Program-made: the position numbers and the translations under genes
IMG/VR virus record: IMGVR_UViG_3300031949_001696
Source of the DNA: a virus
Taxonomy: Duplodnaviria; Caudoviricetes
Reading direction: 5' to 3' (one strand)
DNA: 64,000 nucleotides
Notes under the pieces: model-generated
The model's database searches: none
The model's input: only the letters and a program-made list of their open reading frames with translations
What the model was told of the DNA's origin: nothing
Part shown: one piece after another, positions 14,653-54,475 of the stretch
Layout of the letters: each line of letters begins with the position of its first letter
How positions within the stretch are numbered: the stretch's first letter is position 1

Positions 14653-14934
14653 TCATCTATAGATCACCCGACGCGTTGGATGCTCTTCGGTCACCGTCTC
14701 ACCGGCACGAGTCATGGTCACCCACGTGACGTATTCGTTCGACTCGGGATAGTTACCGCCAGAGCGCACGCGGCCGGTTCCGATCTCATCTCCGAGGTAG
14801 TCCAGCACGGCGACACGCTGGCCATTCTCGTATCCGTATCGACCTGCCTTCGCGGTACCGCCGCCATGCTTGGTTTTTGCGAGGACCTCGGCGATGTCGC
14901 GACCTAGTTGAGCAGGAGACTTTTTGCGACGCAT
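14653..14934 (-). CDS. Small protein with N-terminal KKSPAQLGRDIAEVL tag and SH3/KOW-like beta domain
   Basis: N-terminus shared with four other ORFs in the window. Confidence 0.7.
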   Translation of the reverse strand: MRRKKSPAQLGRDIAEVLAKTKHGGGTAKAGRYGYENGQRVAVLDYLGDEIGTGRVRSGGNYPESNEYVTWVTMTRAGETVTEEHPTRRVIYR

Positions 14935-15000
14935 GACTTGAGCTTCGAGTCTACCGCCTCACAGGACAGAATGGTTTCGAACCGATCCCTTGACCGCGAC

Positions 15001-16011
15001 TCACGTCTCGAAGACGACGTCCGCGATCGGCCGCGTCTGATCCCCGTACGTGCCATCGACGGTGTTCACGCCGTAACAGCGGTACACGCACGCCGCGAGG
15101 TTTCCGACGTTTTGGTCGGTGATTTCGACGTACTGCATCGGCTGCCCAGACCAGCGACCGTTCGCGTAGCGTCCGTCTGCTGCGATCCGATACAGGCGGT
15201 TTTCCCAGACCACGAAGAGCCCTGTGTGATGCCACCACAGCCACTTGCCGTTGATCAGCGTCGACTGACCGAACACGACGAAGGTGGGCAAGGTGCCCGC
15301 ACGTGCCCGCGCGAGCAGCTCTTTGGCGTCGATTACCTTCGAGATGCCGGCGCGCTTCGTCGTGCTGCCGTCGGTCAAGATCGGCGAGCACATGTCGCCG
15401 TAGCCGCGGTATCGAAGCACCCAGCCGTCCTGCGGCACGACATGCTCGTCGGCCGATGCTTCGCACAACGTCCACAGCTCCGGGACATTGCCAGCATGTG
15501 TGTAGTCGCCGTTGCGGCGACCGAGCCAGCCGAGGACGAAGTTCGTGAACGCGGAGCAGTGGAACGACGGGAACGTCTGGCCGCCGTTCCATGCCTTCGC
15601 GCCAAGCGCTCCGGGCCCGTGGGTGACGACCCACTTGTCGCCGACGAAGAGCCCGCGTCCCGGTCCGTAGCGAACCGGTTTGCCCGTGATCGCTCCGACG
15701 ATCACGGCGATGAACCGCTGGAACGCGGCCCACGTCACGGCGTTGCACGGCACGATCGCGATCGGACTCGGCGGTGGCGGCGGGCTCGGATTCTTGATGA
15801 CGAGGGCCTGCGCGATGCGCGCCTGGGTCAGAGGGCCTGCGATCTCGTCGTCGACGAGCTCCTCGTACGCCTGCTGGAACGCGAGCACAGCAGCCGCGGT
15901 TTTCGGACCGAAGTCGCCGTCGATGTCACCGTCGTAGTAGCCGAGCGCCCTGAGCCGGATCTGGAGCTGCTCGACCTCAGCGCCCTGGCTTCCTCGCTTG
16001 AGAATGCTCAC
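15001..16011 (-). CDS. Modular endolysin: N-terminal peptidoglycan-binding domain plus putative NlpC/P60- or CHAP-like Cys-His catalytic domain
   Basis: LKRGSQGAEVEQLQIRLRALGY..IDGDFGPKTAAAVLAFQ (PG_binding_1), a Pro linker, then FHCSAF and HHTGLF. Confidence 0.8.
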   Translation of the reverse strand: MSILKRGSQGAEVEQLQIRLRALGYYDGDIDGDFGPKTAAAVLAFQQAYEELVDDEIAGPLTQARIAQALVIKNPSPPPPPSPIAIVPCNAVTWAAFQRFIAVIVGAITGKPVRYGPGRGLFVGDKWVVTHGPGALGAKAWNGGQTFPSFHCSAFTNFVLGWLGRRNGDYTHAGNVPELWTLCEASADEHVVPQDGWVLRYRGYGDMCSPILTDGSTTKRAGISKVIDAKELLARARAGTLPTFVVFGQSTLINGKWLWWHHTGLFVVWENRLYRIAADGRYANGRWSGQPMQYVEITDQNVGNLAACVYRCYGVNTVDGTYGDQTRPIADVVFET

Positions 16012-16238
16012 GGCACGTCGTCTTTCGAGGAGTCGAACTTGCGATCGAGGGCGTCGTCGGCTTCCTTGCGATCTGCTGCGAGCTGATCGCGCATCTTCTC
16101 GGCTTCGGCGAGCGCCTGCTTGAGCTGCGCGGTACCGGCCTCGAGCGCTTGTTTGGCCTTATCGATCGTGCTGGCGAGACCCTCGGCGGTTGCGATCAAG
16201 AGCTTGGCGACGTCGATCGCATGGTTGATGTCGATCAT
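16008..16238 (-). CDS. Small coiled-coil protein in lysis cassette
   Basis: Coupled to the lipoprotein and endolysin genes; heptad-rich. Confidence 0.6.
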   Translation of the reverse strand: MIDINHAIDVAKLLIATAEGLASTIDKAKQALEAGTAQLKQALAEAEKMRDQLAADRKEADDALDRKFDSSKDDVP

Positions 16239-16660
16239 GGCTTCGCCTCCTTGGGCGGTGACGCGGGAGTCTTGAGGTCCTTGAGGTCCTTGAGGTCCTT
16301 GAGGTCCTTGAGCAGGGAGAGCGCCTTCTTGACCGCGCTAGCTGCCTCGCCCGCACTCTTTGCGTCGGAAAGGAGTGCTGCGTCGTGGATGGCGCGGTAG
16401 GCGACGTCGATCGCCTTGGCGACGACATCGACTTTCGCGCGCCACGCGTCGAGCTGGGTGCGGCCCTCCTCCTTGGAGGTCGCCTTCTCGACGATCTGCT
16501 CTTCGCGCTCCCTGCTGACCGTGAGCAGTGTGTCGCGCGCGACGTTGAGCCCGACGAGGCTGCCGCGGAGCGCCTGGACGCGGGCGCTCGCGCCGCAGGC
16601 AGCGACGAGGCCGACGAGGCAGAGGAGCACCACGAGCCTGGCGGCGGATTGCGCGAGCAT
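16235..16660 (-). CDS. Lipoprotein with coiled coil (spanin candidate)
   Basis: Signal peptide with lipobox LVAAC. First gene of the lysis cassette. Contains an in-frame (KDL)x4 9-nt tandem repeat. Confidence 0.65.
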   Translation of the reverse strand: MLAQSAARLVVLLCLVGLVAACGASARVQALRGSLVGLNVARDTLLTVSREREEQIVEKATSKEEGRTQLDAWRAKVDVVAKAIDVAYRAIHDAALLSDAKSAGEAASAVKKALSLLKDLKDLKDLKDLKTPASPPKEAKP

Positions 16661-16669
16661 GAAAAACCC

Positions 16670-16777
16670 TACTCCGAAGCTACCCGCGGGTCCAAAAACC
16701 CGCAGTCGCGGTCGAGCTGACGCGCTTTACTCCAAAGCGGCGAGCGGGTCCAAAAACCCGCAGTCGTGGTCGAGCTG
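16670..16777. repeat. Two ~50-bp direct repeats (period 58 bp) between divergent genes
   Basis: TACTCC.AAGC.....GCGGGTCCAAAAACCCGCAGTCG.GGTCGAGCTG at 16670-16719 and 16728-16777, each with an internal GCGGGT..ACCCGC inverted repeat. Confidence 0.9.
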
Positions 16778-16834
16778 CCATCGCGAACTTGCAGATCTCA
16801 CGTGAGGACGGGTGTTGCGTTAATGTCTTAGAGC

Positions 16835-17485
16835 ATGTCTTTCGATCCGCAGACGTCCGATCTCAAGCGACTGTTCATGGATCCGCACATGTTTGATTCG
16901 GCCGAGGATTGGCATGACGCGGGCTTCAAGATCGTTCGCGACAGCGAGACCAAGATCCTCGTTGCCAGACACAAGGCGGCGGACGGTTACCTGTTCAAGA
17001 AGTACACGAACCGGATCCCGCTGAACGAGCAGCTTGCGAAGTTCAAGCGCCGCGTCGAGGGCGCGCGAAAGCTGCGATCGCTCATCGCCGAGAAACATCT
17101 CCGGCGAATCGTCGTTCCGCAGAAGTGGCTCCGCGAGCTTCCCCGCGAATTCTCGCGCGGAGGAGTACCTTCCTACGTGCTCATCGTCGAGAAGTTCCCG
17201 ATCTTGGACAAAGACGACTCCGAGTACGAGCACGAAGAGATCGACGAAGATACGCTGCGCGAGCTGTGCGTTGTCGTCTACGCGTGCACGCACCTCGACT
17301 TCACGGCCAGAAACGCTCCCTTCACGAAGCGGGGTCAGATCGCCTTCATCGACACGGAATATCTGGACTGGAACGTCACGAAGAGCTGGCAGAAGTACCT
17401 GGAGAATGTCGGCAAGTACGTGTCCAGCCGGCGCCTGGATTTTGCGAAGAGGTTGTGGAACGAGTTGGGCGGTGGCGGCGCGTGA
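16835..17485 (+). CDS. Atypical protein-kinase-like fold protein
   Basis: YLFKKY (beta3 Lys), HLDFTARN (catalytic D-x4-N loop) and IAFIDTE (DFG equivalent). Confidence 0.6.
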   Translation: MSFDPQTSDLKRLFMDPHMFDSAEDWHDAGFKIVRDSETKILVARHKAADGYLFKKYTNRIPLNEQLAKFKRRVEGARKLRSLIAEKHLRRIVVPQKWLRELPREFSRGGVPSYVLIVEKFPILDKDDSEYEHEEIDEDTLRELCVVVYACTHLDFTARNAPFTKRGQIAFIDTEYLDWNVTKSWQKYLENVGKYVSSRRLDFAKRLWNELGGGGA

Positions 17486-17525
17486 TGGCCGACGACGCCA
17501 ACGATTTACGGCATCCTGCGCGCTA

Positions 17526-21273: not shown

Positions 21274-21282
21274 GGAGCCGAG

Positions 21283-28358: not shown

Positions 28359-29063
28359 ATGCCGAAGAAGACCGCCGCCCGACTAGATCGCGAGATTGCG
28401 GAAGCGCTCAAGCCTCGCCCACGCAGACACCACGCGACGATGAGTGACTCGTGGAACGTCGCGATGGACGCTCTCTTCGAGCGCGATCCCAAGAGGGCCG
28501 CCGACATCGTGCGGCAGATCCGCGAAGAGCATGGAGCCGCGGTGAAGACGCCCGAGACGTTCAAGGATGCGATGCGCGACGTTCCAGACGCCGTGCGGCA
28601 GCAGTTCAGTTCCGAGCTGCTACGTCCACGCACCGCACGCAACATTGACGTGGGGTCTCACGTCGAAATTCCAACGCATCGCTCGCATGGCGAGGTCATC
28701 AAGATCTATCAAGACAAGGCGTTGGTGCGAATGGCTTCGGGCCTCACGGATCGGTTCAAGCTGGCCGACCTCAAGCTTGCCGGTGTTCGAGGATCACGTT
28801 CAGCGCGACACCATTCAACGAAAGGCTCGGAGCAGATCCACGCGCTTTCGGCCGATCAGCTCGAAGCGCTGCGCGCGTTCGCTGAGGAAAACGGTCGCTC
28901 CTGGAAGTCCAAGCTCAACACCGCGTGGTCGACCGGCCGTTACGACGACTATAGCGGCACCGACGACTACGGCAGCTTGCAGCAGGTCCGCAACAGGTTC
29001 GGACCGGCATGGCTCTCCAGATTCTCATTCGACCGCATCAAGACACACAGCGTGCAGGGCTAA
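28359..29063 (+). CDS. Multi-module protein with N-terminal KKTAARLDREIAEAL tag and a KOW/SH3-like module
   Basis: Shared tag. RHHAT and RHHST linkers. IDVGSHVEI...GEVIKI..ALVR beta barrel. Confidence 0.75.
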   Translation: MPKKTAARLDREIAEALKPRPRRHHATMSDSWNVAMDALFERDPKRAADIVRQIREEHGAAVKTPETFKDAMRDVPDAVRQQFSSELLRPRTARNIDVGSHVEIPTHRSHGEVIKIYQDKALVRMASGLTDRFKLADLKLAGVRGSRSARHHSTKGSEQIHALSADQLEALRAFAEENGRSWKSKLNTAWSTGRYDDYSGTDDYGSLQQVRNRFGPAWLSRFSFDRIKTHSVQG

Positions 29064-29365: not shown

Positions 29366-29611
29366 ATGGCGAAGAAGACGCGCGCGCAGCTCGATCGCGA
29401 AATCGCCGCGCACCTGCGCCGGTACGGACTACCGAATGGTCGCGCCAAGGGCCGCCACCCCAGCGAGTTCGACCCGGTCCAGCTTCGTCGCGGAATCCAG
29501 GTCGAGCTGGAGCACACGAGGGACCCCGAGATTGCCGCGCGGATCGCGATGGATCACCTGGTCGAAGATCCGCTCTACTACGTGAAGCTCGCGACGATTC
29601 ACGTCGACTGA
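29366..29611 (+). CDS. DUF5661-like protein with N-terminal KKTRAQLDREIA tag
   Basis: FDPVQLRRGIQVELEHT.D..IAARIAMDHL.EDPLYYVKL. GAGAGG RBS upstream. Confidence 0.75.
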   Translation: MAKKTRAQLDREIAAHLRRYGLPNGRAKGRHPSEFDPVQLRRGIQVELEHTRDPEIAARIAMDHLVEDPLYYVKLATIHVD

Positions 29612-29637: not shown

Positions 29638-30339
29638 ATGATGCCATCAATACTACGCTGGAAGAAGGTTGCGGCCGGCGTCTACCACGCGACCTCTCCG
29701 TGGGGCCTCTACACCATCGACGGTACAGGCAGCTACGGGCGGAATCGCTGGACGGTGACCTATCCAGACGGCGACTACGGGATGGCCGACGCACTCGCAG
29801 AAGCCATGCTGTGGGCCGAGTCGGATGCAGAGGAGCGCACTCGGCAACGCGGCTCCGCAGCGCACGCCACGAAGAAGATGCCTGTTGTCGGCCGCAGGTC
29901 CGCGCGCCGCCACGCGGTGATCACCGACGTCGCCGATGACGACAAAGAGCGGGTGATCGCGCTGCTCGGCCAGCGAGACGCGAGCGCGCGTCAAGTGGCG
30001 CGCGACCTACTGCTCCAGCGGGGCATGATCCAGACGGGGCGGGTCAAGCAGCTGATCCCGATCGGCGATTCGTTTTCTGGTTGGATCTTCATGGCCGAGA
30101 TCACGGGACTGGGCCGCTTGGCGGGACCTTCCGGCCATCGATTCTGGGTGGTAGCGCCGTCCTTCAAGGTCGGAGACGTCGTCGACTTCACGACCACGCG
30201 AGAGCCTCCGCCTACGGGCAAGGGTACGAAGCCCAAGCCCCCGACGCAGCAGCTTCATCCAGTCGGGATCTTGACCACGAGCGCGGTCTTTCCCGAGTCA
30301 GTGATTCGGCGTTGGGTCGAGAAGTGGTGGATCGAATGA
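29638..30339 (+). CDS. Hypothetical two-module protein (AHATKK linker)
   Basis: ORF with plausible composition. Confidence 0.6.
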   Translation: MMPSILRWKKVAAGVYHATSPWGLYTIDGTGSYGRNRWTVTYPDGDYGMADALAEAMLWAESDAEERTRQRGSAAHATKKMPVVGRRSARRHAVITDVADDDKERVIALLGQRDASARQVARDLLLQRGMIQTGRVKQLIPIGDSFSGWIFMAEITGLGRLAGPSGHRFWVVAPSFKVGDVVDFTTTREPPPTGKGTKPKPPTQQLHPVGILTTSAVFPESVIRRWVEKWWIE

Positions 30340-31199: not shown

Positions 31200-32938
31200 T
31201 TAAGCAGCGACGTCGTCTTCGATCTCGTCGAGCGCTTGCCGCAGGACCGCCAGGGCCTTCTTCTCGAGCTGCCGGATGCGCTCGCGCGAGAGCCGCATGG
31301 CCTTGCCGACCTCCTTCAGCGTCTCGGGTTCGGAACCGCCGAGCCCGAAGCGCCTCTGCACGATCTGGACGAGCAGCGGCGGTAGACGAACGAGCACCGC
31401 CGCGAGCTGGTCGCCTTCCTCACGCGTCGACAGGATCTCGTCGGCGAGGGCGTCTTCGCTGGCGAGGTAGCTGGGAGTCTCTCCCTCCTCGCTGCCGACC
31501 GAGTCAAACGCGGGAAGCGTCTCGCGGTGCTTGAGCCAGTCGCTTTCCAGCGTCTTGAGGCTCTGCTCGGAACCTTGATCGCGCTCGCGAGCTCGCGGCG
31601 ATCCGGATCGCGGCCGAGCTTCTTACGCAGCTCGACCTTCGCACGCCGGACCTTGGAAGAGAGGTCGTGCAAGTGGACGGGCACGCGCACCTCACCGCTG
31701 TTCTGCCGCGCGCGGACGAGGTAGTGGCGGATCCACCAAGTCGCGAAGGTCGAGAAGCGCAAGCCCCGACGGTAATCGTAGCGTGAGATCGCCTTGAGCA
31801 GACCGAGGTTTCCCTCCTGGATGAGGTCGCTCATCGCGAGGTTCGTCTTGAGGTGATAGCCGTGTCGGCGGATCGTTGACGGCACCAGGCGCAGGTTGCA
31901 GATCGTGAAGCGCTCGCGGATCCGGTCAGCCTCGGCGGCGATCGTGCGCAGCGCGGCGAGTTCGGGAACCAGGCGCTTGTCCTTGGGATCGGCGCTCTCG
32001 ATCACGCGCGTCGCGATCAGGCGATCGAGATCTGCCGCGCGAGCCTCGCCGGCGTCCTTCGCCGCGACCGGCGAATCGAGTCCCAGCAGCAGCTTCTGTG
32101 CCTCGGGCGCCAACGGGCCGTCCATCAGGCGCGCCCAGAGCGCGATCTCGACTTCCTCGAGACGCCGGGACAGCTCTAGCTCCTCGGCTCTGGTCAACAG
32201 GTGATGCCCGCTGATCGCCGACGCATAGATCTGCGCGGCGTCCGGCGGCGCCGTTCGAGTGCGGCTATCAGAATGATCTTCGTCTCGCGTGATGCGGGTA
32301 CTGTTTGTTCGCGCGGCCTCCGGCGGTGCCGATCGAGTGCGGCTATCAGAATGATCTTCATCGCGCATGATGCGGGTACTGTTTGTTCGCGCGGCATCCG
32401 GCGCCGCCGTACGTCCACGGCCAGGATGATCCTCGTCGTCGTCGCGTTTGTTGCGACGAGGCGCCCGCGTCGCGGGTTCCCGCTTCCCGGCCGATCCGGA
32501 TCGTGTGCCCCCTGCGGCCGACGCGCGCGTGTGGCGGCGTCCGCGACCGTTCCCTTCCGATCGCAGGAGGCCCATCTTGCGCAACGTGAAGATCTCGGTG
32601 TGGAGGGTCCCGCGGTTGACCGGACGGTGCTCCTCCAGCTCGCGGCGGATCTCCATGGTCGACCGGGCCTGGCCATCGGAGAGTAGGCCCAGCACGGCCT
32701 CACGGAGCGATCCGCTCGGCGGCTCCTTCGCCGGCGCGGCGAGAAGAAGTGGGGCACCCCGCACGCCACCCGAAGAGAGTTCGGCCATGTCGCCGCCCAG
32801 GTCACCCTCGATCGTCGCGAGGAAGTGCCCGTAGTCCGAGGGCGCGAGGCGGCGGAACGCGGAGACGGCCTCGTCGATCCGCGCGCGCTGGTCCTGGCCA
32901 GCTCGCAGATGCCGCACGATCGGAGAGTCGTCGCCCAC
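31200..32938 (-). pseudogene. RpoD/RpoS-like sigma-70 factor with N-terminal winged-helix extension; single-base frameshift at ~31570 separates region 4 (may be a sequencing error)
   Basis: Region 1.2 LLTRAEELELSR, region 2 NLRLV..DLIQEGNLGLLKAISRYDYRRGLRFSTFATWWIR and region 3 VRVPVH..LGRDP. Region 4 RRFGL..TLKEVGKAMRLSRERIRQLEKKAL is in another frame. Restoring one base at GTT CC GAG rejoins them. Confidence 0.88.
32241..32408. repeat. 69-bp (23-aa) tandem repeat, ~2.4 copies, in the sigma factor linker
   Basis: AARTNSTRI.RDEDHSDSRTR.APP repeated in protein and DNA. Confidence 0.9.
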
Positions 32939-34512: not shown

Positions 34513-36588
34513 ATGCGCGTGTACAAGTTCCTCTGCATCCCCGCAACCGCTGCCGACGATCGCGCCTTGCGCGATCAAGTGTACTTGGGATCCCGCTACC
34601 GTCGACAGAGTGCGCTGATCGAGAACCGCGCGCGCGTGCTCCAGCGCGGGATCGCAGATCGACCGGCGCTGAATGTCCCGGAGAAGGATCGTTCCGCGTG
34701 GTGGAAATCGGAGGAGGGCAAGGCGGCACGCGACGCGTGGTACGCCTCCGACGAGTGCAAGATGCTCCGCGAGATCATCTTCGCGGAGAAGAAACGCGCG
34801 CTCAAAGCAGCGCGCGACGCCGCGATCGAGGCCGGCACCATGTGGGGAACGTGCGGCAAGGCGGACGACGCCGCAGACTTCGCGCGTCGCGCGGTCGACA
34901 AAAACGGCCTCATCGACGAGGACGGGCAGACCACGTTCGTGGACACGCACTTTCCCGCGGACGTGGGCCGCATCGCCGTGCAGTTCCAGAGGGGCAACGA
35001 GCGGATCGACACCCGCACGGGCAAAAAGATCCCCGCGAAGAAGCTCATCTACGCCGATGACCTGATCGGCGATGAGGATACGCGGCTCCGCATCGGGACC
35101 GTCGCCTACGCGCTGGCCGAGCCTGTCGACGGGTTCAGGCCCGCTGCGATCGACGCTGAGGGCAAAGCGATCGACGTCTACACGCGCGGCCTCAGCGAGC
35201 GAGAACAAGATCTACTCGCGCGAGATCAACGAGAAGAAGCGATCGCTGCCTACGCCGCTCGCACGCCCGCCAGCATCGATCCGTCGGGTAACATCTGCAA
35301 GACGCCCGAACAGAAGGCCGTCACGAAGATCGTCCGCTGGGAGCGTGGCGAGCGAGACGAGAAAGGCAAGCGCTACCATTCTCTCGCGATTCGCGTAGGG
35401 ACCATGCCGGGCACGATCCGTCCGATCTGGGCACACCTGCACGTGATGCTTCATCAGAGCCCGCGATCCAAGAATCAACTCGTGCTCGGCCACGACGTCG
35501 TCAAGTGGGCCGTGATCCGGCGCGAACGGACGGGCCTGCGCTATCGCTGGTTCCTCACGCTCGAGACCGAGGGGGACGTGGCGGTGACATCGCCGCATCC
35601 CCAGCCTCACGACGCGATCGCCGTCCACATCGGCTGGCGGCAGCTCTTCAGCGAAGCCGGCGATCCTGCCGGCATCCGCGTGCTCACGTGGAGCGCCAGC
35701 GCGCCGCTCGATCCCGACGATCCGCGGAGTCCCCGCGAGGGACAGCTCGTGCTTCCGCAGGAAGTCGTCGACCAGAAGCCGTTCGCCGATCGCATCCATT
35801 CGACCCGCGACAAGAACCAGGACGTGCTCCGCGACATGATCCTCGTGTACGCGCGATCGCTGCCGACGTCGTCGTGGCTGCGAGTCGAAGCTGCCCACAT
35901 GCACCAATGGCGCGCGCCCCGCAAGTACGTGCGTCTGTACTGCCAGTGGAAGGAGCAACGCATCCACGGCGATCAGGCCGCGTTCGCGGCGCTGGAGGCA
36001 TGGATCAAGCAAGATCGTCACCTGCTTCACCGCGAGGCGCCGAGCATCGAGCGCATGAAGCGTCAGATCGAGGGCAGGGTCACCGCGCTCGCGGTCCAGC
36101 TGGCCAAGCGCTACGGCGTCGTCGCCAGCGATAACATCGCCGTGGGCGAGCTGGTCAAGAAGGACGACCGCCACGACGAGGACGAGCAGAAGCTGCGCAA
36201 GAAGACGGCGCGGCGTGTGAACGTCGTGGCGCCGGGCGAAGCGCGAGCGCTCGTCCGCTACTTCGCGAAGAAGTACGGCTGTGTCGGCCTGGAGCTCGAC
36301 GCGGCGGGAGGCACGATCGACTGCGACGCGTGCGGACATCGACGTGACGTCGCCCGAGAAGACCGCGTGCAGCGGATGATCCGCTGCGAGAATTGCGGTC
36401 ACGTCGAGGACCAAGATCTCACGATGAGTCGGAACCTCCTGTCGGGTGCGAGCGCCGTCGCTCGCGGCGAGAGTGGGTGGCCGCTCGCGCCCAAGGTTCC
36501 GGCAGCTTCCACGAAGAAGCGAGCGACCGTCCGACGGAATCGGCGACGCGGGCAGCAGCCGCTCGCAAGCAGTGTCGGAACGCCGTAA
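34513..36588 (+). CDS. cas12m: Cas12m (type V-M/V-U1)-like effector, 691 aa, non-canonical RuvC H-D-D triad
   Basis: MRVYKF..P...LRDQVYLG, GRIAVQFQ, RuvC-I IAVHIGWR (His in place of Asp, as in MmCas12m VALHLGWR), QWRAPRKY, RuvC-II VVASDN, VAPGEAR, zinc finger CDACG..CENCG and RuvC-III DQDLTMSRN. The array starts 25 bp downstream. Confidence 0.88.
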   Translation: MRVYKFLCIPATAADDRALRDQVYLGSRYRRQSALIENRARVLQRGIADRPALNVPEKDRSAWWKSEEGKAARDAWYASDECKMLREIIFAEKKRALKAARDAAIEAGTMWGTCGKADDAADFARRAVDKNGLIDEDGQTTFVDTHFPADVGRIAVQFQRGNERIDTRTGKKIPAKKLIYADDLIGDEDTRLRIGTVAYALAEPVDGFRPAAIDAEGKAIDVYTRGLSEREQDLLARDQREEAIAAYAARTPASIDPSGNICKTPEQKAVTKIVRWERGERDEKGKRYHSLAIRVGTMPGTIRPIWAHLHVMLHQSPRSKNQLVLGHDVVKWAVIRRERTGLRYRWFLTLETEGDVAVTSPHPQPHDAIAVHIGWRQLFSEAGDPAGIRVLTWSASAPLDPDDPRSPREGQLVLPQEVVDQKPFADRIHSTRDKNQDVLRDMILVYARSLPTSSWLRVEAAHMHQWRAPRKYVRLYCQWKEQRIHGDQAAFAALEAWIKQDRHLLHREAPSIERMKRQIEGRVTALAVQLAKRYGVVASDNIAVGELVKKDDRHDEDEQKLRKKTARRVNVVAPGEARALVRYFAKKYGCVGLELDAAGGTIDCDACGHRRDVAREDRVQRMIRCENCGHVEDQDLTMSRNLLSGASAVARGESGWPLAPKVPAASTKKRATVRRNRRRGQQPLASSVGTP

Positions 36589-36613: not shown

Positions 36614-39600
36614 GTAGCAATCGATGCGAGACCTCGCACTGGTCTCGACACGTAGGTTCCCGAGTCGGAGCGCATCTCGCCCGGCATGTAGCAATCGATG
36701 CGAGACCTCGCACTGGTCTCGACACCGTCAACGTCCACTTCGGCGCCGAGCACACCAAGTTCGTAGCAATCGATGCGAGACCTCGCACTGGTCTCGACCT
36801 CGAGCTTGCGCTTGAAGTTGGAGCGATCCTCACGTAGCAATCGATGCGAGACCTCGCACTGGTCTCGACAGTTGGTGGGGTTGGCGGAGTTGGCGCGCTC
36901 GCCGGATCGTAGCAATCGATGCGAGACCTCGCACTGGTCTCGACGAAAACAATAGCGCACCGAACGACGCAAGGTCGATCGTGTAGCAATCGATGCGAGA
37001 CCTCGCACTGGTCTCGACTCTTTGATCTCGGAGACGGGCACCACGCGTGAGAATCGGGTAGCAATCGATGCGAGACCTCGCACTGGTCTCGACCGATCAC
37101 TTGCCGCGCCGACCGGTCGGATGGGGTGGTAGCAATCGATGCGAGACCTCGCACTGGTCTCGACCAGACCGACGCACCAGCTGAGGCACACCACGCCGTT
37201 GGTAGCAATCGATGCGAGACCTCGCACTGGTCTCGACCGAGAGAAACGCTCGCTGTGACTCGACCGCCGATCGTGTAGCAATCGATGCGAGACCTCGCAC
37301 TGGTCTCGACAGCGCAAAGCTCCCCTGGTGGAGGAAAGCATTGCGGGTAGCAATCGATGCGAGACCTCGCACTGGTCTCGACGGCAGCGTGCTCCGCGCG
37401 AGCTGGCGCGCGACCTGGTAGCAATCGATGCGAGACCTCGCACTGGTCTCGACATTCACCACCTGCGCGTCTTGGTCGGCGAGTAGCAATCGATGCGAGA
37501 CCTCGCACTGGTCTCGACGTCTCGACCCAACGACCTACGTCACGGCCGAATGAGTCGACGATGTAGCAATCGATGCGAGACCTCGCACTAGTCTCGACAA
37601 AAGGCAGGCGACTTCGATGCGAGACCTCGCACTGGTCTCGACTATGTCCTCACGCAGCAGCGGGCCGATTACAACTTCGTAGCAATCGATGCGAGACCTC
37701 GCACTGGTCTCGACCGCCAACCCTTCCGTCACGCGGAAAGAAGTCGACGATCGTAGCAATCGATGCGAGACCTCGCACTGGTCTCGACGGCACCTCAACA
37801 GGCGACGAAACGCGCCAGCGTACGAGTAGCAATCGATGCGAGACCTCGCACTGGTCTCTGGTCTCGACTTCCGAGACGTTACTGGCTAACCTTCTTCAGA
37901 GACCCTAGTAGCAATCGACCTCGCACTGGTCTCGACATGCTCGACGGCTACATCCTCAGCACCGGCGCGGTCGTAGCAATCGATGCGAGACCTCGCACTG
38001 GTCTCGACGTAGAACTCCTCCAACGTGATTCGAGACAGGCGATTTCGTAGCAATCGATGCGAGACCTCGCACTGGTCTCGACGGAAATGTCTCACGACGA
38101 CAACGACGACGAGCAGGCGCGTAGCAATCGATGCGAGACCTCGCACTGGTCTCGACCGGCCAAACCGTCTGGCATCAACTCCGCGATGACACTAGTAGCA
38201 ATCGATGCGAGACCTCGCACTGGTCTCGACTCCCCAGCACACCACGTACACCGCCGAGTCTCAATCGTAGCAATCGATGCGAGACCTCGCATTGGCCTCG
38301 ACCGGCTGTTGTGCTCGGCCACGTGATCAGCGCGCGCGTAGCAATCGATGCGAGACCTCGCACTGGTCTCGACCCCTTGACGTACGCGAGGATCCTTCGG
38401 CCTTCGGCCGTTCGGGTGTAGCAATCGATGCGAGACCTCGCACTGGTCTCGACGATATCTCGTCCTCCAGCGCCAGCACCCTCGAACCGGTAGCAATCGA
38501 TGCGAGACCTCGCACTGGTCTCGATTCGGGCCTGAGGTAGCGATCACGGCCGACGAGCTGCGTAGCAATCGATGCGAGACCTCGCACTGGTCTCGACACA
38601 GAAGAAGCTGATGCGATCGATGCGAGACCTCGCACTGGTCTCGACGATATCTCGTCCTCCAGCGCCAGCACCCTCGAACCGGCAGCAATCGATGCGAGAC
38701 CTCGCACTGGTCTCGACGACGGTCTCTTGTCCGAGGACGAGTGCATCCGCAGATCGTAGCAATCGATGCGAGACCTCGCACTGGTCTCGACTTGTCCTCC
38801 ATTCGTCGGACGCTAGCGGGCGAGACGGGTACCGTCGGGTAGCAATCGATGCGAGACCTCGCACTGGTCTCGACTCCGCTATCATCTGGCAGATCGCGCA
38901 GCACCGCTCGTGTAGCAATCGATGCGAGACCTCGCACTGGTCTCGACACCGAGCAACTCAAGTTGCTGCGCGAAGCACCGAAGGTAGCAATCGATGCGAG
39001 ACCTCGCACTGGTCTCGACAAGCGTTACTGAGAAGGGAGAAGGGAGCTGCCGCAGCTCCGGCGTAGCAATCGATGCGAGACCTTGCACTGGTCTCGACGA
39101 GCTGGATCTCCCGGATTCCTTCCGATCCGCCGAGGTAGCAATCGATGCGAGACCTCGCACTGGTCTCGACCGCAACTCCGGCTCGCTATCGTCGAGATCG
39201 ATTGGAGTAGCAATCGATGCGAGACCTTGCACTGGTCTCGACTCGCTTCTGGAGATGGACCTCAAGCCTGGTGCACCTGTAGCAATCGATGCGAGACCTC
39301 GCGCTGGTCTCGACGTCACTGAGGCACCTGGATTGCTGACGTGACTCCGCACGTAGCAATCGATGCGAGACCTCGCACTGGTCTCGACACCGTCATACCC
39401 CCCGACGCGCACGTGCTCGGCGACGTAGCAATCGATGCGAGACCTCGTACTGGTCTCGACCAAATTCGAGAACCTGATCGATGCATCATCCGCGGTCGTA
39501 GCAATCGATGCGAGACCTCGCACTGGTCTCGACATTCAAGAAGCCAGCGACTGCGAACCGCCGACCGCCGGGTAGCAATCGATACGAGACCTCGCACTGG

Positions 39601-40495
39601 TCTCGACGTGAACCACGCGACCTGGCCGCGACCGAGGGTCGGGTGTCGGGTAGCAATCGATGCGAGACCTCGCACTGGTCTCGACTGGTACAGCACGTAA
39701 ACGCCGGCGAGCGCAGCGGCGTAGCAATCGATGCGAGACCTCGCACTGGTCTCGACAAGATCGCGTTCGCAGTTGCGGCGCCGTTCATTCCGGTAGCAAT
39801 CGATGCGAGACCTCGCGCTGGTCTCGACTAGGGCGTCCCAATCAGCGCGAGCGCACGGGTCACAAGTAGCAATCGATGCGAGACCTCGCACTGGTCTCGA
39901 CGATCTACGATCTACCGCTGGATCATCAGACTGCCAGTGACGTGAGTAGCAATCGATGCGATACCTCGCACTGGTCTCGACTATACCGAGCGCAATTTCA
40001 ACCCTGTCGCACCGAAGCGTAGCAATCGATGCGAGACCTCGCACTGGTCTCGACGGGCCGACCATCGCCCTCACGTCCAGCATTCCCGATGTGTAGCAAT
40101 CGACGCGAGACCTCGCACTGGTCTCGACCGGCACCTCCGTACTCGGCAGCGAGAAGCCTCTTGAGTAGCAATCGCTGCGAGACCTCGCACTGGTCTCGAC
40201 AGTTCGAAACGCTCGATCACAAGTTGCAAGAGATCGTAGCAATCGCTGCGAGACCTCGCACTGGTCTCGACTCGCTAAGCGCTAAGGGACTAAGGGACCT
40301 CGAACCAAACGCTTCTAGCCTGTAGCAATCGCTGCGAGACCTCGCACTGGTCTCGACTCGCTAAGGGACCTCGAACCAAACGCTTCTAGCCTGTAGCAAT
40401 CGATGCGAGACCTCGCACTGGTCTCGACCTTACATTGCTGTCGCCACGGCACCCGGTCGCCGCCGCAGCTGTAGCAATCGATGCAAGACCGCACG
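36614..40495 (+). CRISPR. CRISPR array 2: ~54 repeats of 36 bp GTAGCAATCGATGCGAGACCTCGCACTGGTCTCGAC, ~53 spacers, degenerate terminal repeat at 40471
   Basis: Regular repeats with a 3' hairpin CGAGACC-TCGCACT-GGTCTCG followed by AC. The degenerate last repeat fixes + orientation. Includes duplicated spacers and indel-bearing units. Confidence 0.99.
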
Positions 40496-43412: not shown

Positions 43413-43964
43413 ATGGCAGCAGCCTGGAAATCATGGAAATCGATTCGTGACCAAGAACCGTGGCGCCAGCCCGAAATCGCCGAGGTGGATTTTGCGTGGC
43501 TAGCTGGTCTTTTGGAGGGAGAAGGCTGCTTTTCGCTTCAGAGCTATCGGAAACACCCCGCTGAGAAAATTGGCGGCTATCAAGTTCCTTCGATAGAGCT
43601 GAAAATGACAGATCGTGACGTTGTGCAACGTGCCGGCAAACTTCTCGGCGGTAAGCAGGGCCGTGTAAGAAGCCAACTTCGGAAGGAGCACGGGAAAGAC
43701 AGGAAACCGATCTTCATCTGGCGCGTCAATGGTCATCGAGCTGTCTATCTGATGAGTCTGCTTTTGCCCTTCATGGGAAAACGACGCTCATCTCGAATCC
43801 GCGAGTTGATTACGCTGCACAAGAGACAAGGTCCTCGTGGCGGTCACGGGATTACTCCAAGCCTTCGCTTCTCACATGTCACTACGTCGAGAAATGAATT
43901 CAACGCCAAACGCCGTGCAAAACGACGAGCCAAAACGGCTCGCAGCCGCCAGCGCGACGCATGA
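43413..43964 (+). CDS. Free-standing LAGLIDADG homing endonuclease-like protein
   Basis: FAWLAGLLEGEGCF, then IELKMTD and PIFIWRV motifs. Visibly lower GC than its neighbours. Confidence 0.85.
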   Translation: MAAAWKSWKSIRDQEPWRQPEIAEVDFAWLAGLLEGEGCFSLQSYRKHPAEKIGGYQVPSIELKMTDRDVVQRAGKLLGGKQGRVRSQLRKEHGKDRKPIFIWRVNGHRAVYLMSLLLPFMGKRRSSRIRELITLHKRQGPRGGHGITPSLRFSHVTTSRNEFNAKRRAKRRAKTARSRQRDA

Positions 43965-44110
43965 CCGGCCGCGTCCGTCCGCGTATTTTCCGGTCGTTTC
44001 GGGAATCATTACGCCTTGTGACGACCTGCATCTCGGCTAATATGGCACCGCGCGCGAGCGCTGGTGGACGTTTTGCAATAGAGCAGGGCGCGATTGGAAA
44101 GGTCTGTGCA

Positions 44111-45088
44111 ATGTCCACCCACGTGTCTTGGGGAAGCATCGAGCTTCTTCACAATGCCGTCCGCACGCTGACGCACCTCACAGAGCAAGGTCGACCGTTT
44201 CCGGTCGTCACGTACCGCGCGAAGGTGAAGCTGCACGGCACCAACTGCGCCGTCCAAGTAAGCGATCACGACATCGTCGCGCAGAGCCGCACGCAGCAAC
44301 TGTCGCCGGAAGCCGACTACAAGGGATTCGCGGCGTGGACGCACGCGCATGCGACGTTCTGGCGAGCGCGCGCGGCCGGGCTCCAACCGTCCTCCGACCA
44401 GAGACTCGTCGTATTCGGCGAATGGTGCGGCCCCGGCGTCGAGAAGGGCATGGCCATCTCGCAGGCGCCGACGAAGCTGTTCTGCGTGTTCGCGATCCAA
44501 GCGACAGATCGAATGATCACCAAGCCGGCCGAGATCCAGGCGCTCTTGCCGGAGGCGCCGCCGGAGCTCCACGTGCTGCCGTGGGAGGGTGATCCGATCA
44601 CGATCGACTTCGGCTCGCGCGAGTCACTGGAGCAGGCCGCGAAGGTGCTGAGTGGTCGCGTCGCCGAGATCGAGCACGAGGATCCGTGGGTCAAACGCGT
44701 GCTCGGCATCAGCGGGCTCGGCGAGGGCCTCGTGCTCTATCCGACGTGGCCGACGCCGCACGATCCGACGTTGATGTTCAAGGCCAAGGGCGAGAAGCAC
44801 CGCACCGCGGGCGCGAAGGTAGCGGTCACCGTCGGCGCCGCGGTCGCATCGTCGATCGACGAATTCGTCGCGCTGATGGTGACCGACGCACGCCTCGAGC
44901 AGGGCCTCGCGACGGCATGTGACGGCACGCGTGATCCGAAGCGGACCGGTGCGTTCCTCATGTGGATCGCGACGGACGTACGCAAGGAGTCGGTCGCGGA
45001 GCTGGAGGCATCGAACCTCGCGTGGGCTCAGGTCGAGAAGGCCATCTCCGCGCGAGCGCGGACGTGGTTTCTGAAGGGAGGTGCGTGA
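44111..45088 (+). CDS. Rnl2-family ATP-dependent RNA ligase
   Basis: KLHGTN (motif I), FGEWCGPG, FCVFAI, GEGLV and FKAKGEKH. Confidence 0.85.
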   Translation: MSTHVSWGSIELLHNAVRTLTHLTEQGRPFPVVTYRAKVKLHGTNCAVQVSDHDIVAQSRTQQLSPEADYKGFAAWTHAHATFWRARAAGLQPSSDQRLVVFGEWCGPGVEKGMAISQAPTKLFCVFAIQATDRMITKPAEIQALLPEAPPELHVLPWEGDPITIDFGSRESLEQAAKVLSGRVAEIEHEDPWVKRVLGISGLGEGLVLYPTWPTPHDPTLMFKAKGEKHRTAGAKVAVTVGAAVASSIDEFVALMVTDARLEQGLATACDGTRDPKRTGAFLMWIATDVRKESVAELEASNLAWAQVEKAISARARTWFLKGGA

Positions 45089-45963
45089 TGAGTCTTCGGC
45101 ACGTGATCGCGGTGGGCGGCAAGCTCCATCCACCGAGCTGGCTTCCCGACAACCTCTGCTACGAGACGATGATGGGATCGGTCGCGTACGGCGTCTCGTC
45201 GGACACCTCCGACGTCGACGTCTACGGCATCTGCATGCCGCCGAAGGACACCGTGTTCCCGCACCTCGCCGGCGAGGTCTTCGGGTTCGGCGCCCAGGTC
45301 AAGCGCTTCGAGAGCTGGCAGGAGCACCACGTCGCCGCGGAGGGCAAGAGTTGGGACTTCCAGATCCTCGGCATCGTCAAATTCTTCCAGCTCGCGATGG
45401 AGAACAACCCGAACATCATCGACTCGATGTTCACGCCGCGGCGCTGCGTGCTGTCGTCGACAGCGATCGGGGAGTACATCCGCGAGCACCGCGTCGACTT
45501 TTTGCACAAGGGTGCGTGGCACAAGTTCAAGGGCTACGCGTACAGCCAGCTCAACAAGATCCGGACCAAAACGCCGACGGGCAAGCGCGCCGAGCTGGTC
45601 GAGGCGCACGGCTACGACACGAAGTTCGCGTATCAAGTCGTCCGTCTGCTGCTGGAGGTCGAGCAGATCCTCGTCCACCGCGACATCGATCTCGAGCGCG
45701 ATCGAGAGCAGCTCAAGGCGATCCGGCGCGGCGAGTGGACCCTGCCGCAGATCGACGAGTGGGCCCAAGACAAAGAAAAGCAGCTGGAGACGCTCTACCA
45801 TACGAGCACGCTGCCGTATGGCCCCGACGAAGCGCGGCTACGCCGCCACCTGATGCACTGCCTCGAAGCGCACTACGGCGATCTGTCGACGGTCGTCGTC
45901 GATCCCGCCGCGGAGACGCGACTCCTGCGCGAGATCGCGAAGCTCACCGAGCGCTATCGATAG
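45088..45963 (+). CDS. RlaP/YcgL-type Pol-beta nucleotidyltransferase (RNA repair associated)
   Basis: GSVAYG..SDTSDVDVYG, NNPNIID, GYDTK.AY..VRLL and LKAIRRG. Coupled to the RNA ligase by a TGATG overlap. Confidence 0.85.
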   Translation: MSLRHVIAVGGKLHPPSWLPDNLCYETMMGSVAYGVSSDTSDVDVYGICMPPKDTVFPHLAGEVFGFGAQVKRFESWQEHHVAAEGKSWDFQILGIVKFFQLAMENNPNIIDSMFTPRRCVLSSTAIGEYIREHRVDFLHKGAWHKFKGYAYSQLNKIRTKTPTGKRAELVEAHGYDTKFAYQVVRLLLEVEQILVHRDIDLERDREQLKAIRRGEWTLPQIDEWAQDKEKQLETLYHTSTLPYGPDEARLRRHLMHCLEAHYGDLSTVVVDPAAETRLLREIAKLTERYR

Positions 45964-49096: not shown

Positions 49097-49411
49097 TCAA
49101 CGTGTCTTCTCCCAGTGATCACGGGCGCGCTCCCACATGTCGAGCTGACGCGAGTCCTTGACCTGGTCCATGTACCAGGGCAAGCCGGGAAATTCGGCCT
49201 CCCACGCGCGCACTTCCTTCTCGTGCGCGGAGAGGTGCGGACGCTTGCTGGCGGTATGCGCTCCGATCAGCGCGAGACCGACGACCGCCAGGCCGATGCC
49301 GCCGATCATCCACGGAGCGATCGTGAAGTGACCCGACGGTTCAGCGGGGCGCATCTCAGCTCCGACGCGAGGGCGCGAGCCGTACTGACCGCGCGCGTTC
49401 GTGAACGACAT
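49097..49411 (-). CDS. Small single-TM protein with N-terminal NARGQYG motif
   Basis: TM segment WMIGGIGLAVVGLALIGA. Motif shared with 52151 and 52508. Confidence 0.65.
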   Translation of the reverse strand: MSFTNARGQYGSRPRVGAEMRPAEPSGHFTIAPWMIGGIGLAVVGLALIGAHTASKRPHLSAHEKEVRAWEAEFPGLPWYMDQVKDSRQLDMWERARDHWEKTR

Positions 49412-51599: not shown

Positions 51600-51826
51600 A
51601 AACTATCCGGGGTACTGGGAAACGGATTTGACCGTCTCCGTGCTCAGGGTACTTCCGGTCGTGGATGCACCACACGATCTTGGCGCCGAACACGACCCGA
51701 CGCTTCTTTGGGCTCGCGGAGCGCGCATCGTCGTCAGCGACAGGGGTCATGGGTGGTGGCGGCGCCGACGATGACGCGCAGGCGACTCGGCGAGAAGGTC
51801 ACCGAGGAAGATGAGGTCGAGCAGTA

Positions 51827-52097: not shown

Positions 52098-52150
52098 CCA
52101 GGCCGGTAACAAAATGGACGAAAGTCCATTCATTTTGTTACCCTCGCTAT

Positions 52151-52504
52151 ATGAACGAGCGCGGACACTACGGAAACGGACCGGCACATACCTCCATGGC
52201 CTACGTCGGGTATGCACCTCCCAAGCCGCCGGATTCGTCTGGGACTGGAGCTGGAACGTTCGTCGTCGGAGCGCTCCTTGTGGGCGGTGCCGTTCTCGGG
52301 CTTCGATGGGCCTTCCGCACGATGAAGGAAGACGAACGCGAGATCCAACGCGAGACTCGTCGGGCGCGTGCACAACAGGAGCTTCTCGACATGCCCGAGC
52401 GTGAGTTCGGCGAGCGCGTGCGTGAGAGCGGGCTACGGACAGGGATGTCTCAAGCGGAGCACGGTCGCGCCCTGGACGCTTATATCGCCAAGAAGGGGCG
52501 CTGA
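52151..52504 (+). CDS. Single-TM protein with N-terminal MNERGHYG motif
   Basis: TM segment FVVGALLVGGAVLGL. TACCCT box just upstream of the ATG. Confidence 0.65.
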   Translation: MNERGHYGNGPAHTSMAYVGYAPPKPPDSSGTGAGTFVVGALLVGGAVLGLRWAFRTMKEDEREIQRETRRARAQQELLDMPEREFGERVRESGLRTGMSQAEHGRALDAYIAKKGR

Positions 52505-52507
52505 GGA

Positions 52508-52801
52508 ATGAACGAGCGCGGACAGTACGGGTACTCATCGGGTGGCTACATCGGCGCAGACCGTACAGAAGCTCCGACAACAAAACCCACATCGGACAAG
52601 AACACCAAATGGGTTGTCTTGACGCTCGCAGGAACACTTGCCGTGGGCGTCCTAGCAAACGTGCTTCTCACGATCCGTAAAGTACGGAAGCAGCCGCGCT
52701 CTCCCTATTATCCGAGCGAGTTGGCTCGACGGGACGCCGAGAGAGCGGAGCGGATGGCCGAGGCGGCTCGTGAAGACAGAGCAAGTCAAAGCCCGAGGTA
52801 A
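52508..52801 (+). CDS. Single-TM protein with N-terminal MNERGQYG motif
   Basis: TM segment WVVLTLAGTLAVGVLANVLL. GAGG RBS. Confidence 0.65.
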   Translation: MNERGQYGYSSGGYIGADRTEAPTTKPTSDKNTKWVVLTLAGTLAVGVLANVLLTIRKVRKQPRSPYYPSELARRDAERAERMAEAAREDRASQSPR

Positions 52802-52855
52802 CAGGGATCTGCTCCTGGTATTGCCGATTGAGCGAGCGCGCACTACGAACGTCGG

Positions 52856-53149
52856 ATGCGCCTTCGTCCCGCCAACCGCATGCCGCCCGTGGGATCGAAG
52901 CACGTCGTGACCTTCCATGCCGTCGCTCGCATGCTGGGATGGGCTTCAGCACGCATTCGCAGGATCGACGACGTGCTTCGCCCGACCCGAGCAGCGAACG
53001 GCGAACGGCTCTACGACGTCGATCGCGTGCTGTTTCTCGTCGAGACGATGGACAATGCGCCGGCCGTTCCAGCCCCGATCGTGATCAGCGCAGCCGAGTA
53101 CAAAGAGCTGCGCCAGCGGTGGCGGGCACAACGCTCGTCGCGCACCTAG
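52856..53149 (+). CDS. MerR-type HTH protein
   Basis: VARMLGWASARIR....LRPTRAANGERLYD..V. Confidence 0.65.
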   Translation: MRLRPANRMPPVGSKHVVTFHAVARMLGWASARIRRIDDVLRPTRAANGERLYDVDRVLFLVETMDNAPAVPAPIVISAAEYKELRQRWRAQRSSRT

Positions 53150-53373
53150 CGCGGTTCTACTTCTGTCGAGTTTTGAGGAAGCGCGGTTCTACTTCCGTCG
53201 AAACTCGTGCGAATGCCGTCGATGCAGCTCGCGCGCTCCGCGAATCGCCCCACGTAATCACCGGACGTTCACCGAGCTTCTGAGGAAGCCGGCCGGGTAT
53301 TGAGGAACCGACCCCTTCTGAGGCACAGCCGCAGCCGGCAGCCGGCAGCCGAAGCAGCCAAACCGTCTGCCGT

Positions 53374-53913
53374 CTACCGGCGTCGCGCCTTCCGCGGCTG
53401 CGCTTCGTGGATCTGACCGCCAGCTGCGCGGATCTCGTCAGGGTGCGTGCCTGCTGCTCCCTTCGAGTGATCGGTCACCGTCATCGCGCCGCTCTTCCCG
53501 AAGTGTCGCGAGACCAGCTTTCGCGGAATCGTCTCGAGCTTGCCGCGGTCGTCGGCCCTTTGGGCGTCCGGCTCGTCCTTGCTCCGGTAGATGTTTCCGC
53601 GGTGGTCTTTGTACATCTGGGGCTGGATGTGCTGGAACGAGAACGTCTCGTCGCCGTATCCCTTAATGGCGCTCGTCGGATGCGTCGGATGTCCTTCGCT
53701 CGCGAAGGAGTCGCGCATCTCCGTCGCGATGCGATGGGAGGTACTCATGCCCGTCGAGCTTGTGCTGCTGGGAATGGAAGGTGCGTCTTCCGCGTGGCTC
53801 GCCGCGTGCGTGCCGCTGCCCGGACCACTGCCGAACGTTCCGTTGCGCCTCGAAAGCACCTCGTTGATCTCGCGATCGAGCTGCGCGGGGCTCTTCTTCT
53901 TGGTCGGCGACAT
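53374..53913 (-). CDS. Protein with N-terminal KKSPAQLDREINEVL tag
   Basis: Shared tag. AAAGGAG RBS upstream of the ATG. Confidence 0.7.
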   Translation of the reverse strand: MSPTKKKSPAQLDREINEVLSRRNGTFGSGPGSGTHAASHAEDAPSIPSSTSSTGMSTSHRIATEMRDSFASEGHPTHPTSAIKGYGDETFSFQHIQPQMYKDHRGNIYRSKDEPDAQRADDRGKLETIPRKLVSRHFGKSGAMTVTDHSKGAAGTHPDEIRAAGGQIHEAQPRKARRR

Positions 53914-53941
53914 GGAACTCCTTTCCAATGGAGGCAGCGAT

Positions 53942-54475
53942 CTACTTCAAGGGACGCCCACACCGACGACAAATGCGGGCGTGACCGAGGCTGCGATAGT
54001 ACCGCTCTTCTTCGGCTGCCAAGTTCCTCTCGTAGACGTAGTCGGGCAGTCTGAACGCTAGCTGCGACTCGCGAGCGGGACTCGTATCGTTCAACGCGTC
54101 GAGGTCGATCCGGTCGAGACAGTACGGCTTGCCTTCGGGCATCGCCGCCCAAACAGCCTGCGCGATCGTCTTAGCGCCTCGTTTGCCTTGCAGATCGTAC
54201 TTGTGGTTGATGGCGTCGAATTCGGACGGAAAGACTGCGTAGTCCGCGCCGCCGTAATTCTGGACAACCTCGTAGTTGGTATCGAGAAACGCTTTGAGCG
54301 CCTTGGTCTTGGTGTCGTAGCAGACGCGATCTTCTTCGGGCGCTGCCTTCCGCCACCAGTTCGCGAGTTGGGTGCTGTGGGAAAGGTGACGGTTCGTGAG
54401 CGTAGGCGCGCGACCTGACGCGAGCGTCTCGGCGATCTCGCGGTCGAGCTGGGCCGCGGTCTTCTTCTTCGCCAT
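53942..54475 (-). CDS. Protein with N-terminal KKTAAQLDREIAETL tag
   Basis: Shared tag. TAGGAT box 7 nt upstream of the ATG. Confidence 0.75.
   Translation of the reverse strand: MAKKKTAAQLDREIAETLASGRAPTLTNRHLSHSTQLANWWRKAAPEEDRVCYDTKTKALKAFLDTNYEVVQNYGGADYAVFPSEFDAINHKYDLQGKRGAKTIAQAVWAAMPEGKPYCLDRIDLDALNDTSPARESQLAFRLPDYVYERNLAAEEERYYRSLGHARICRRCGRPLK

Follow-up and report, generated by a model that had tools for sequence, protein, structure and literature searches.

A helical peptide tag and a recurrent junction motif look like a docking-and-joining code for orphan proteins of huge soil phages

The tagged genes and their cargo

Five genes dispersed over both strands of a 64,000-nucleotide stretch of viral DNA (IMG/VR record IMGVR_UViG_3300031949_001696, Caudoviricetes; hereafter the window) encode proteins that open with the same short peptide and share little else. 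The window has a G+C content of 62–66% and is part of a 332,853-bp soil-metagenome contig; the sequencing runs listed for it were two of soil-metagenome DNA and none of RNA, on which no conclusion here depends. The peptide, which we call the tag, follows the motif [KR]-K-[ST]-x-A-[QR]-L-[DG]-R-[DE]-I-x-x-x-L and has exactly five copies in the window. An earlier reading made from the letters of the sequence and its open reading frames (the sequence-only reading) had pointed to these five N-terminal copies, and both of our scans bore them out: across all six frames, L[DG]R[DE]I with KK upstream occurs in five places only, each within 20 codons of the start of an open frame, and a hidden Markov model (HMM) of the five peptides gives them scores of 37.8–41.0 bits, with the next best stretch in any frame at 9.0. 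Four of the five start codons have a clear Shine–Dalgarno sequence of the AGGA/GGAG type 6–12 nt upstream, while that of the gene starting at 14934 is weaker. The tagged genes, together with one neighbour that carries a junction motif without the tag, are as follows.

14653-14934, minus strand: P0001, gene for a 93-aa tagged protein; tag KKSPAQLGRDIAEVL encoded at about 14878-14925
28359-29063, plus strand: P0002, gene for a 234-aa tagged protein of three modules; tag at 28365-28409
28428-28439 and 28809-28820, plus strand: the HHAT and HHST junctions of P0002
29366-29611, plus strand: P0005, gene for an 81-aa protein made of the tag and DUF5661; tag at 29372-29416
29638-30339, plus strand: P0254, gene for a 233-aa protein of two modules; AAHAT-KK junction at 29863-29871, without the helix tag
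53374-53913, minus strand: P0003, gene for a 179-aa tagged protein; tag at about 53854-53898, followed by a Gly/Ser-rich stretch
53942-54475, minus strand: P0004, gene for a 177-aa tagged protein; tag at 54422-54466, HST at 54371-54379

The likeness between these proteins ends with the tag, and they are not homologous along their full length: the BLAST match between P0001 and P0003, for instance, covers 18 residues only. The cargo behind the tag also differs, in line with what the sequence alone had suggested. Residues 39–77 of P0005 form a DUF5661 domain (PF18905; E 4.3e-13, score 49.8 bits with a gathering cut-off of 27) with the tag lying outside it, and P0002 has in its middle a predicted small beta-barrel, for which Foldseek gave weak matches to Tudor, KOW and SH3 folds. 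Apart from these two domains, the tagged proteins of the window had no family match in Pfam, NCBIfam or PHROGs. P0002 is the most composite of them, running from the tag through the HHAT junction, a helical module, the barrel and the HHST junction to a C-terminal module. Its AlphaFold2 model contains a helix at residues 6–17 with a predicted local distance difference test score (pLDDT) of about 90 and domains at 28–88 and 101–134, and drops below a pLDDT of 50 at residues 145–162, around the second junction.

Alignments with relatives from other contigs revealed that these modules are shuffled. Those of P0002 occur in other orders; the cargo module of P0001 matches residues 73–163 of the 164-residue P0034 and 118–207 of the 211-residue P0038, both of which have an internal tag; and P0003 belongs to a family of about 10 members, one of which (P0044) has its tag at residue 82 of 362. 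Four relatives of P0005 (P0017, P0020, P0021 and P0032) begin with an extra N-terminal module, followed by HAT and then by the tag and DUF5661. The C-terminal module of P0254 (residues 103–231) matches residues 26–154 of P0090, which is tagged at its N-terminus; as P0254 itself has a junction and no tag, the junction motif is also used independently of the tag. P0004 shows the layout of tag, hypervariable tether, invariant HST and conserved body, and in the alignment of its family the tag and HST are invariant, the tether differs between members in length as well as in sequence, and the body shows 77–88% identity.

Conservation, placement and junctions of the tag

Searches for further copies led to a narrow group of contigs. 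A profile of the five N-termini retrieved 1,332 proteins at E<=10 from 5.8 billion proteins in a candidate-limited search, and 239 clusters at E<=1e-3 from 1.84 billion representatives at 50% identity. The three best representatives (P0124, P0125 and P0187) are translated DNA repeats in which LQCGPAQLGREI recurs many times and were rejected as false positives; these proteins, which come from other metagenomes, are built of LQCGPAQLGREI and FNAARPNWAGK units, evidently read from interspersed DNA repeats, whose likeness to the tag is due to chance. At the DNA level, the 11-residue pattern KK-x-x-AQLDREI matched 97 metagenome stretches, compared with about 2 expected by chance, on JGI soil, rhizosphere and sediment contigs of up to 461 kb. 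The tag carriers are contigs of 217–502 kb from soil and sediment only, and one of them (L046, 217 kb, from an NCBI metagenome-assembled genome, or MAG) shares a Cas12-like gene and its neighbours with the window, which suggests that the carriers form one clade.

Other collections gave little. In IMG/VR, the heptapeptide AQLDREI was found 42 times, inside coiled-coil-like or other proteins, and never in an N-terminal KK form. The 10-residue pattern in 185,579 species genomes of GTDB occurred about as often as a rough estimate of chance would have it (126 stretches); the sole confirmed locus there (L044), a weak, single, internal match in an alphaproteobacterial MAG, was treated as unrelated. 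Megablast of 12 kb of the window against cultured phages returned no match, and tblastn with P0004 returned only an insignificant match to a Caulobacter phage. Across the sequence collections searched, the tag and the junction motif are thus restricted to one clade of huge phage contigs from soil and sediment. Our literature search found no paper describing the tag motif and none on DUF5661. As a separate observation on this clade, IMG/VR (2.9 million contigs) returned none of its contigs, JGI, ENA, Logan and the NCBI MAGs hold many, and a single contig of 118 kb has been placed in a Gaiellaceae MAG. For this clade, which IMG/VR lacks, the tag is a clean marker.

Within the clade, conservation lies in the peptide. 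In 12 copies from the window and the 502-kb relative L043, nucleotide identity is 58–79%, the two codons differ in 48% of the pairs that specify an identical residue, and no long identical nucleotide tract is shared; the DNA upstream of the five starts in the window does not align between copies. Because the codons vary and the upstream DNA is unrelated, selection appears to act on the peptide, as the sequence-only reading had argued from codon differences. Ten residues (A, Q, L, D, R, E, I, A, E, L) are individually retained in 81–100% of 247 collected instances. The tag consists of a Lys–Lys pair, an S/T-P-A-Q cap, which is a classical helix N-cap arrangement, and a predicted amphipathic helix of 11–12 residues (Q-L-D-R-E-I-A-E-x-L). 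Leucine 2, isoleucine 6 and leucine 10 of the helix, together with A/V9, would form one face, and D3, E5 and E8 an acidic polar side, with KK preceding. The hydrophobic moment is 0.50–0.57, a value reached by 4.7% of shuffled sequences, and AlphaFold2 also places a helix at residues 7–19 of P0004, in a family model with a pLDDT of 38. The tag region itself had no match at E<=1 in Pfam, PHROGs or NCBIfam, and its best PDB profile match had an E of 0.56, so there is no sign that it is a known DNA-binding or dimerization domain. The models and alignments thus support the proposal of a portable peptide on unrelated cargo, with a short amphipathic helix predicted after a basic pair, and the combination of an invariant tag and HST with a variable tether is, in these alignments and models, characteristic of a binding helix that is already folded and carried on a flexible tether.

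The position of the tag is less uniform than its sequence. Of the 247 instances, 133 stand at the N-terminus, 92 are internal, 7 lie near the C-terminus and 15 are ambiguous because of a Met just upstream. A sample of 86 drawn with the DNA pattern, which is independent of gene calls and not de-replicated, gave 47 N-terminal tags, 30 internal ones directly after H-[ASG]-x and 9 internal ones without it; eight of the 86 tags end within 40 residues of a stop. The N-terminal share of about 55% compares with about 7% if tags were placed at random in proteins of 180 residues. The tag is strongly biased toward the N-terminus but not confined to it, and a strictly N-terminal position, the check proposed in the sequence-only reading, did not hold up in relatives (92–107 of 247 internal and 7 C-terminal; 39 of 86 internal in the DNA-pattern sample).

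The cargo in these relatives is as diverse as in the window. When proteins were split at tags and junctions, 362 segments of at least 35 residues fell into 175 BLAST families that are combined in many orders, and the orphan modules have a median length of about 64 residues. The same cargo was found behind an N-terminal tag, behind an internal tag and untagged. A Pfam match was obtained for 7 of 127 tagged representatives (about 95% had none), and none of the matches was a peptidase; the matching cargo comprised DUF5661, DUF6496, one GNAT, one sigma-70 region 4 and one SPOR domain. Tagged genes can be densely packed: L043 has about 15 tag-bearing frames within 11 kb, including 13 on the plus strand among 17 co-directional genes of about 200 aa (L043:800-11200), an array that is followed by a full-length DnaJ gene and, 9 kb beyond, by a Peptidase_C1 gene.

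We found that the modules meet at a second motif, with the extended form R-[HSA]-H-[AS]-T-[KRM]-K-K. In the collected proteins, H[AS]T occurs 193 times compared with 13.9 expected from composition, a 14-fold enrichment. In half of the internal tags (50%), H-[ASG]-x immediately precedes the basic run, as in R-H-H-A-T-K-K-S-P-A-Q-L-D-R-E-I-A-E-A-L, and 72 of the 247 tags are followed by another H[AS]T no more than 40 residues downstream, mostly at 5–20, where the next residue is chiefly Met, Lys or Gln. Modules without the helix are linked in the same way in P0254, P0227 and P0160. Of the homology breakpoints that are over 25 residues away from every tag, 43% have an H[AS]T no more than 6 residues off, compared with 10% at random. 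Only 1 of 250 proteins ends in HAT, and the surroundings of HAT are hydrophilic (mean hydropathy −1.11 compared with −0.73 overall). In these alignments, then, a recurrent junction motif coincides with the boundaries of shuffled modules. Because it is found only between units, we tentatively regard H-A-T as a candidate protease site. The Thr before KK is often K, R, A, V or M instead, while H-A stays; this better retention of H-A suits a protease that prefers a small residue at P1 and speaks against Thr as a phospho-acceptor. A cut at H-A-T would also recreate the x-KK start of the N-terminal forms.

A proposed docking helix, its possible destination and other readings

Taken together, the tag and the junction seem to make up a code, so far undescribed, by which hundreds of orphan phage proteins would be docked and joined. 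We suggest that small orphan modules are strung together through R-[HSA]-H-[AS]-T-[KRM]-K junctions, and that a docking helix displayed on disordered, basic, hypervariable tethers would be the commonest element at a protein start or right after a junction. One common reader would bind this helix and gather dozens of unrelated accessory proteins at one place, and a protease may cut the H-A-T junctions, releasing the modules and exposing or removing the tag. We lean slightly toward the view that the tag is a clade-specific docking helix read by one partner; on the whole explanation, a two-motif grammar of position-independent docking helix and H-A-T junction, our judgement is evenly divided. Where the proteins would meet is speculative: it could be the assembling virus particle, with the modules packaged and delivered with the DNA as T4 internal proteins are. 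By analogy, such T4-like packaging is the most attractive destination, though we consider it rather doubtful. The most complete version, a private sorting and processing code in which dozens of orphan effectors per genome are made as small polyproteins, R-H-H-A-T/K-K junctions are cut by a dedicated protease, and the KK-SPAQLDREIAEAL helix serves as an address most likely read in the assembling particle, from which the modules would enter the next host together with the DNA, would be an unlikely conjunction.

Several observations weigh against a docking-and-joining code. No candidate for the reader or the protease was found in the window or among the most widely shared neighbours of 85 loci, and the argument for cleavage is one of sequence grammar only. 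The apparent invariance of the tag is inflated because the sets of instances were gathered with probes built from the consensus; the weaker copies in L043 carry A, V or T instead of R. All faces of the helix are conserved, which is unusual for a simple docking helix that binds through one face. As for the neighbours considered as readers, the commonest untagged families in the 85 loci are fibre-like SO2946-like_C proteins or orphans, and the DnaJ beside the L043 array and the L043 Peptidase_C1 were each met once only; none was retained.

Parts of such a code have counterparts elsewhere. Bacterial microcompartment (BMC) encapsulation peptides, as on PduD, PduP, EutC and CcmN, are amphipathic helices of 15–20 residues that lie at either terminus next to a poorly conserved linker (PMC4594438; PMC12339742). 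The tag is similar in placing an amphipathic helix on several unrelated cargo proteins (predicted helices at 6–17 and 7–19, with the hydrophobic moment given above) and in its poorly conserved linker, evident in the P0004-family alignment. However, BMC peptides keep the hydrophobic pattern only, whereas the tag is nearly invariant, lies also between modules and belongs to a viral carrier with hundreds of cargo families. No BMC shell family was among the Pfam matches of the 86 open reading frames scanned in the window or of the called genes of L043 and L045–L047.

The proteases of the giant phages SPN3US and phiKZ act at (S/A/G)-x-E sites in structural or ejection proteins. Propeptides of head and ejection proteins in these phages (substrates of SPN3US gp245 and phiKZ gp175) are reported to be cut at a short consensus in many proteins by a single phage protease during head maturation (PMC7411985, PMC10052503). 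The candidate site in the tag clade is instead H-[AS]-T and lies in small orphan modular proteins. Polyvalent proteins join unrelated conflict-type domains in one polypeptide and have been proposed to be delivered together and then cut (Iyer et al. 2017; PMC5512222). Those are large, with 2–15 known domains and their own peptidase domain, whereas the proteins described here have 80–380 residues, orphan modules (a Pfam match in 7 of 127, none a peptidase), no peptidase domain and a fixed junction motif. What they do have in common with viral polyproteins is a motif that recurs at boundaries, as seen in the 14-fold enrichment of H[AS]T and its proximity to 43% of breakpoints compared with 10% at random.

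The closest comparison is the capsid-targeting sequence (CTS) of phage T4, which is about 10 residues long and strictly N-terminal; the T4 prohead protease follows the rule (L/I)-x-E. Carried by the internal proteins IPI, IPII and IPIII, the CTS can be transferred to foreign cargo, and proteolysis takes it off (PMC3012670). Like it, the tag is a short common peptide on unrelated, fast-evolving accessory or defence proteins of a large phage. The tag might be a strictly N-terminal, cleavable signal in this same manner, which would bind the scaffold core, bring the cargo into the head and be removed by the prohead protease, and several features point that way. The N-terminal share is far above that expected at random (about 55% compared with about 7%), many N-terminal tags have R-H-H-A-T 5–20 residues further on, often followed by Met, and I-A-E in the helix fits the T4 protease rule. 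A cut after H-A-T ahead of internal tags would leave an x-KK start resembling the Met-processed forms of MA-, MT-, MP- and MS-KK. The T4 internal proteins are, moreover, diverse defence proteins with only the CTS in common (PMC3012670).

We nevertheless consider this reading unlikely. Between 35% and 45% of the copies are internal and 5–9% are C-terminal, several of the latter with no module following them, so that a signal requiring a free N-terminus holds only if H-A-T cleavage, which is plausible, exposes the internal copies. In the window and among the neighbours of the 85 loci, nothing tied the tag to a gene for a prohead protease, scaffold or capsid, and the Pfam scan of the window found no protease. 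The tagged cargo does not resemble known virion proteins. The tag also differs from the CTS itself: it is 15–17 residues long, shows no sequence likeness to it, is internal or C-terminal in 40–45% of copies (N-terminal in 133 of 247 and 47 of 86) and comes with its own junction motif, H-A-T rather than L/I-x-E.

A second possibility is that nothing reads the tag, and that the helix and H-A-T are favoured spacers spread by module shuffling. The hydrophilic linkers in which both motifs lie and the many kinds of module they separate would suit such passive linkers. Spacers drift, however, and here the adjacent tethers are hypervariable while 10 helix positions are 81–100% kept across at least 175 families; nor is there a reason for a spacer to stand at the extreme N-terminus in 55% of copies. 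We therefore regard passive linkers as improbable. A shared degron or timer, by which a host or phage AAA+ protease or adaptor clears early accessory proteins together, is poorer still in our estimation. Degrons typically show a bias to protein termini, as the tag does, and many small tagged orphans lie in accessory regions near genes of anti-defence type (Lar and ADP-ribosylglycohydrolase in the window, an AcrVA2-like gene in L046), but internal copies between folded modules fit a degron badly, the tag is unlike known degrons, and no protease is linked to it.

We think it very unlikely that the tag, as a basic pair with a hydrophobic helix, is a docking motif for a phage Ser/Thr kinase, with the Thr of H-A-T as phospho-acceptor and a phosphatase for reversal. 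An acceptor-like Thr does lie 3–20 residues from the helix, the relative L047 encodes a Pkinase protein and the window encodes a dual-specificity phosphatase domain; yet the Thr before KK is often K, R, A, V or M, Ser hardly ever substitutes for it, and the kinase was seen in a single relative. There is slimmer reason to think that the product is an excised basic peptide of about 25 residues (KK, helix, tether and RHHAT) that many precursors would yield in many copies, for example a DNA-condensing or signalling peptide. Tags often lie between two H-A-T motifs and are numerous in a genome, with as many as 15 inside 11 kb of L043, but 175 of the 247 tags have no H[AS]T within 40 residues downstream, and cleavage is itself a supposition. 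A DNA-level feature rather than a peptide signal, such as a regulatory site or a hot spot of recombination through which cassettes are shuffled, would account for the heavily shuffled flanking modules but is largely refuted by nucleotide identities of 58–79% with free synonymous codons and fixed residues, and by unrelated upstream DNA.

If the docking helix is what it appears to be, its significance would be wide. Huge phages have hundreds of orphan genes, and an address tag with a junction motif gives experiments a single point of entry to an entire class of these. Once found, the single reader (and the protease, if any) would indicate the place and time of action of more than 175 module families, and the reader would also reveal if the particle-borne delivery of effectors that is seen in T4, P1 and phiKZ-like phages here follows a sequence code. 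The tag could further serve as a portable loading or docking peptide.

Other genes of the window and its relatives

The window has further features of note, listed here in order of position.

1211-3553, minus strand: second Cas12-like protein, about 770 aa
3725-4762, plus strand: fusion of HNH and RNA ligase, part of an RNA-repair set
31316-32938, minus strand: sigma-70-like protein, 540 aa, with regions 1.2, 2 and 3
34513-36588, plus strand: Cas12-like protein, 691 aa, with a Cas12f1-like TNB domain
36614-40428: CRISPR array, 25 bp after the preceding Cas12-like gene, about 50 units with a period of 72–75
43961-45088, plus strand: second RNA ligase of the RNA-repair set
44962-45963, plus strand: RlaP nucleotidyltransferase of the RNA-repair set
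49097-49411, minus strand: small protein with another common N-terminus
52151-52504, plus strand: small protein with the same N-terminus as the last
52508-52801, plus strand: small protein with the same N-terminus as the last two

The 36-nt repeat of the CRISPR array starts with GTAGCAATCGATGCGAGACC, and the second Cas12-like protein has a 27%-identical homologue with conserved neighbours in L046. The three small proteins all start with M-(x)-N-[AE]-R-G-[QH]-Y-G, beyond which come a Pro/Gly linker, a single predicted transmembrane helix and a tail of charged residues. The window also encodes a UvrD helicase, a peptidoglycan-binding protein, and collagen-like and SASA proteins; among 66 open reading frames that were aligned, there were further matches to ADP-ribosylglycohydrolase (E 2.6e-46), an Rv2179c-like 3'-5' exoribonuclease, Lar restriction alleviation and the DSPc dual-specificity phosphatase. 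Within 10 kb of tagged genes in the relatives, L046:3496-4623 encodes an AcrVA2-like protein and L047:288-1718 a eukaryotic-type Ser/Thr protein kinase.

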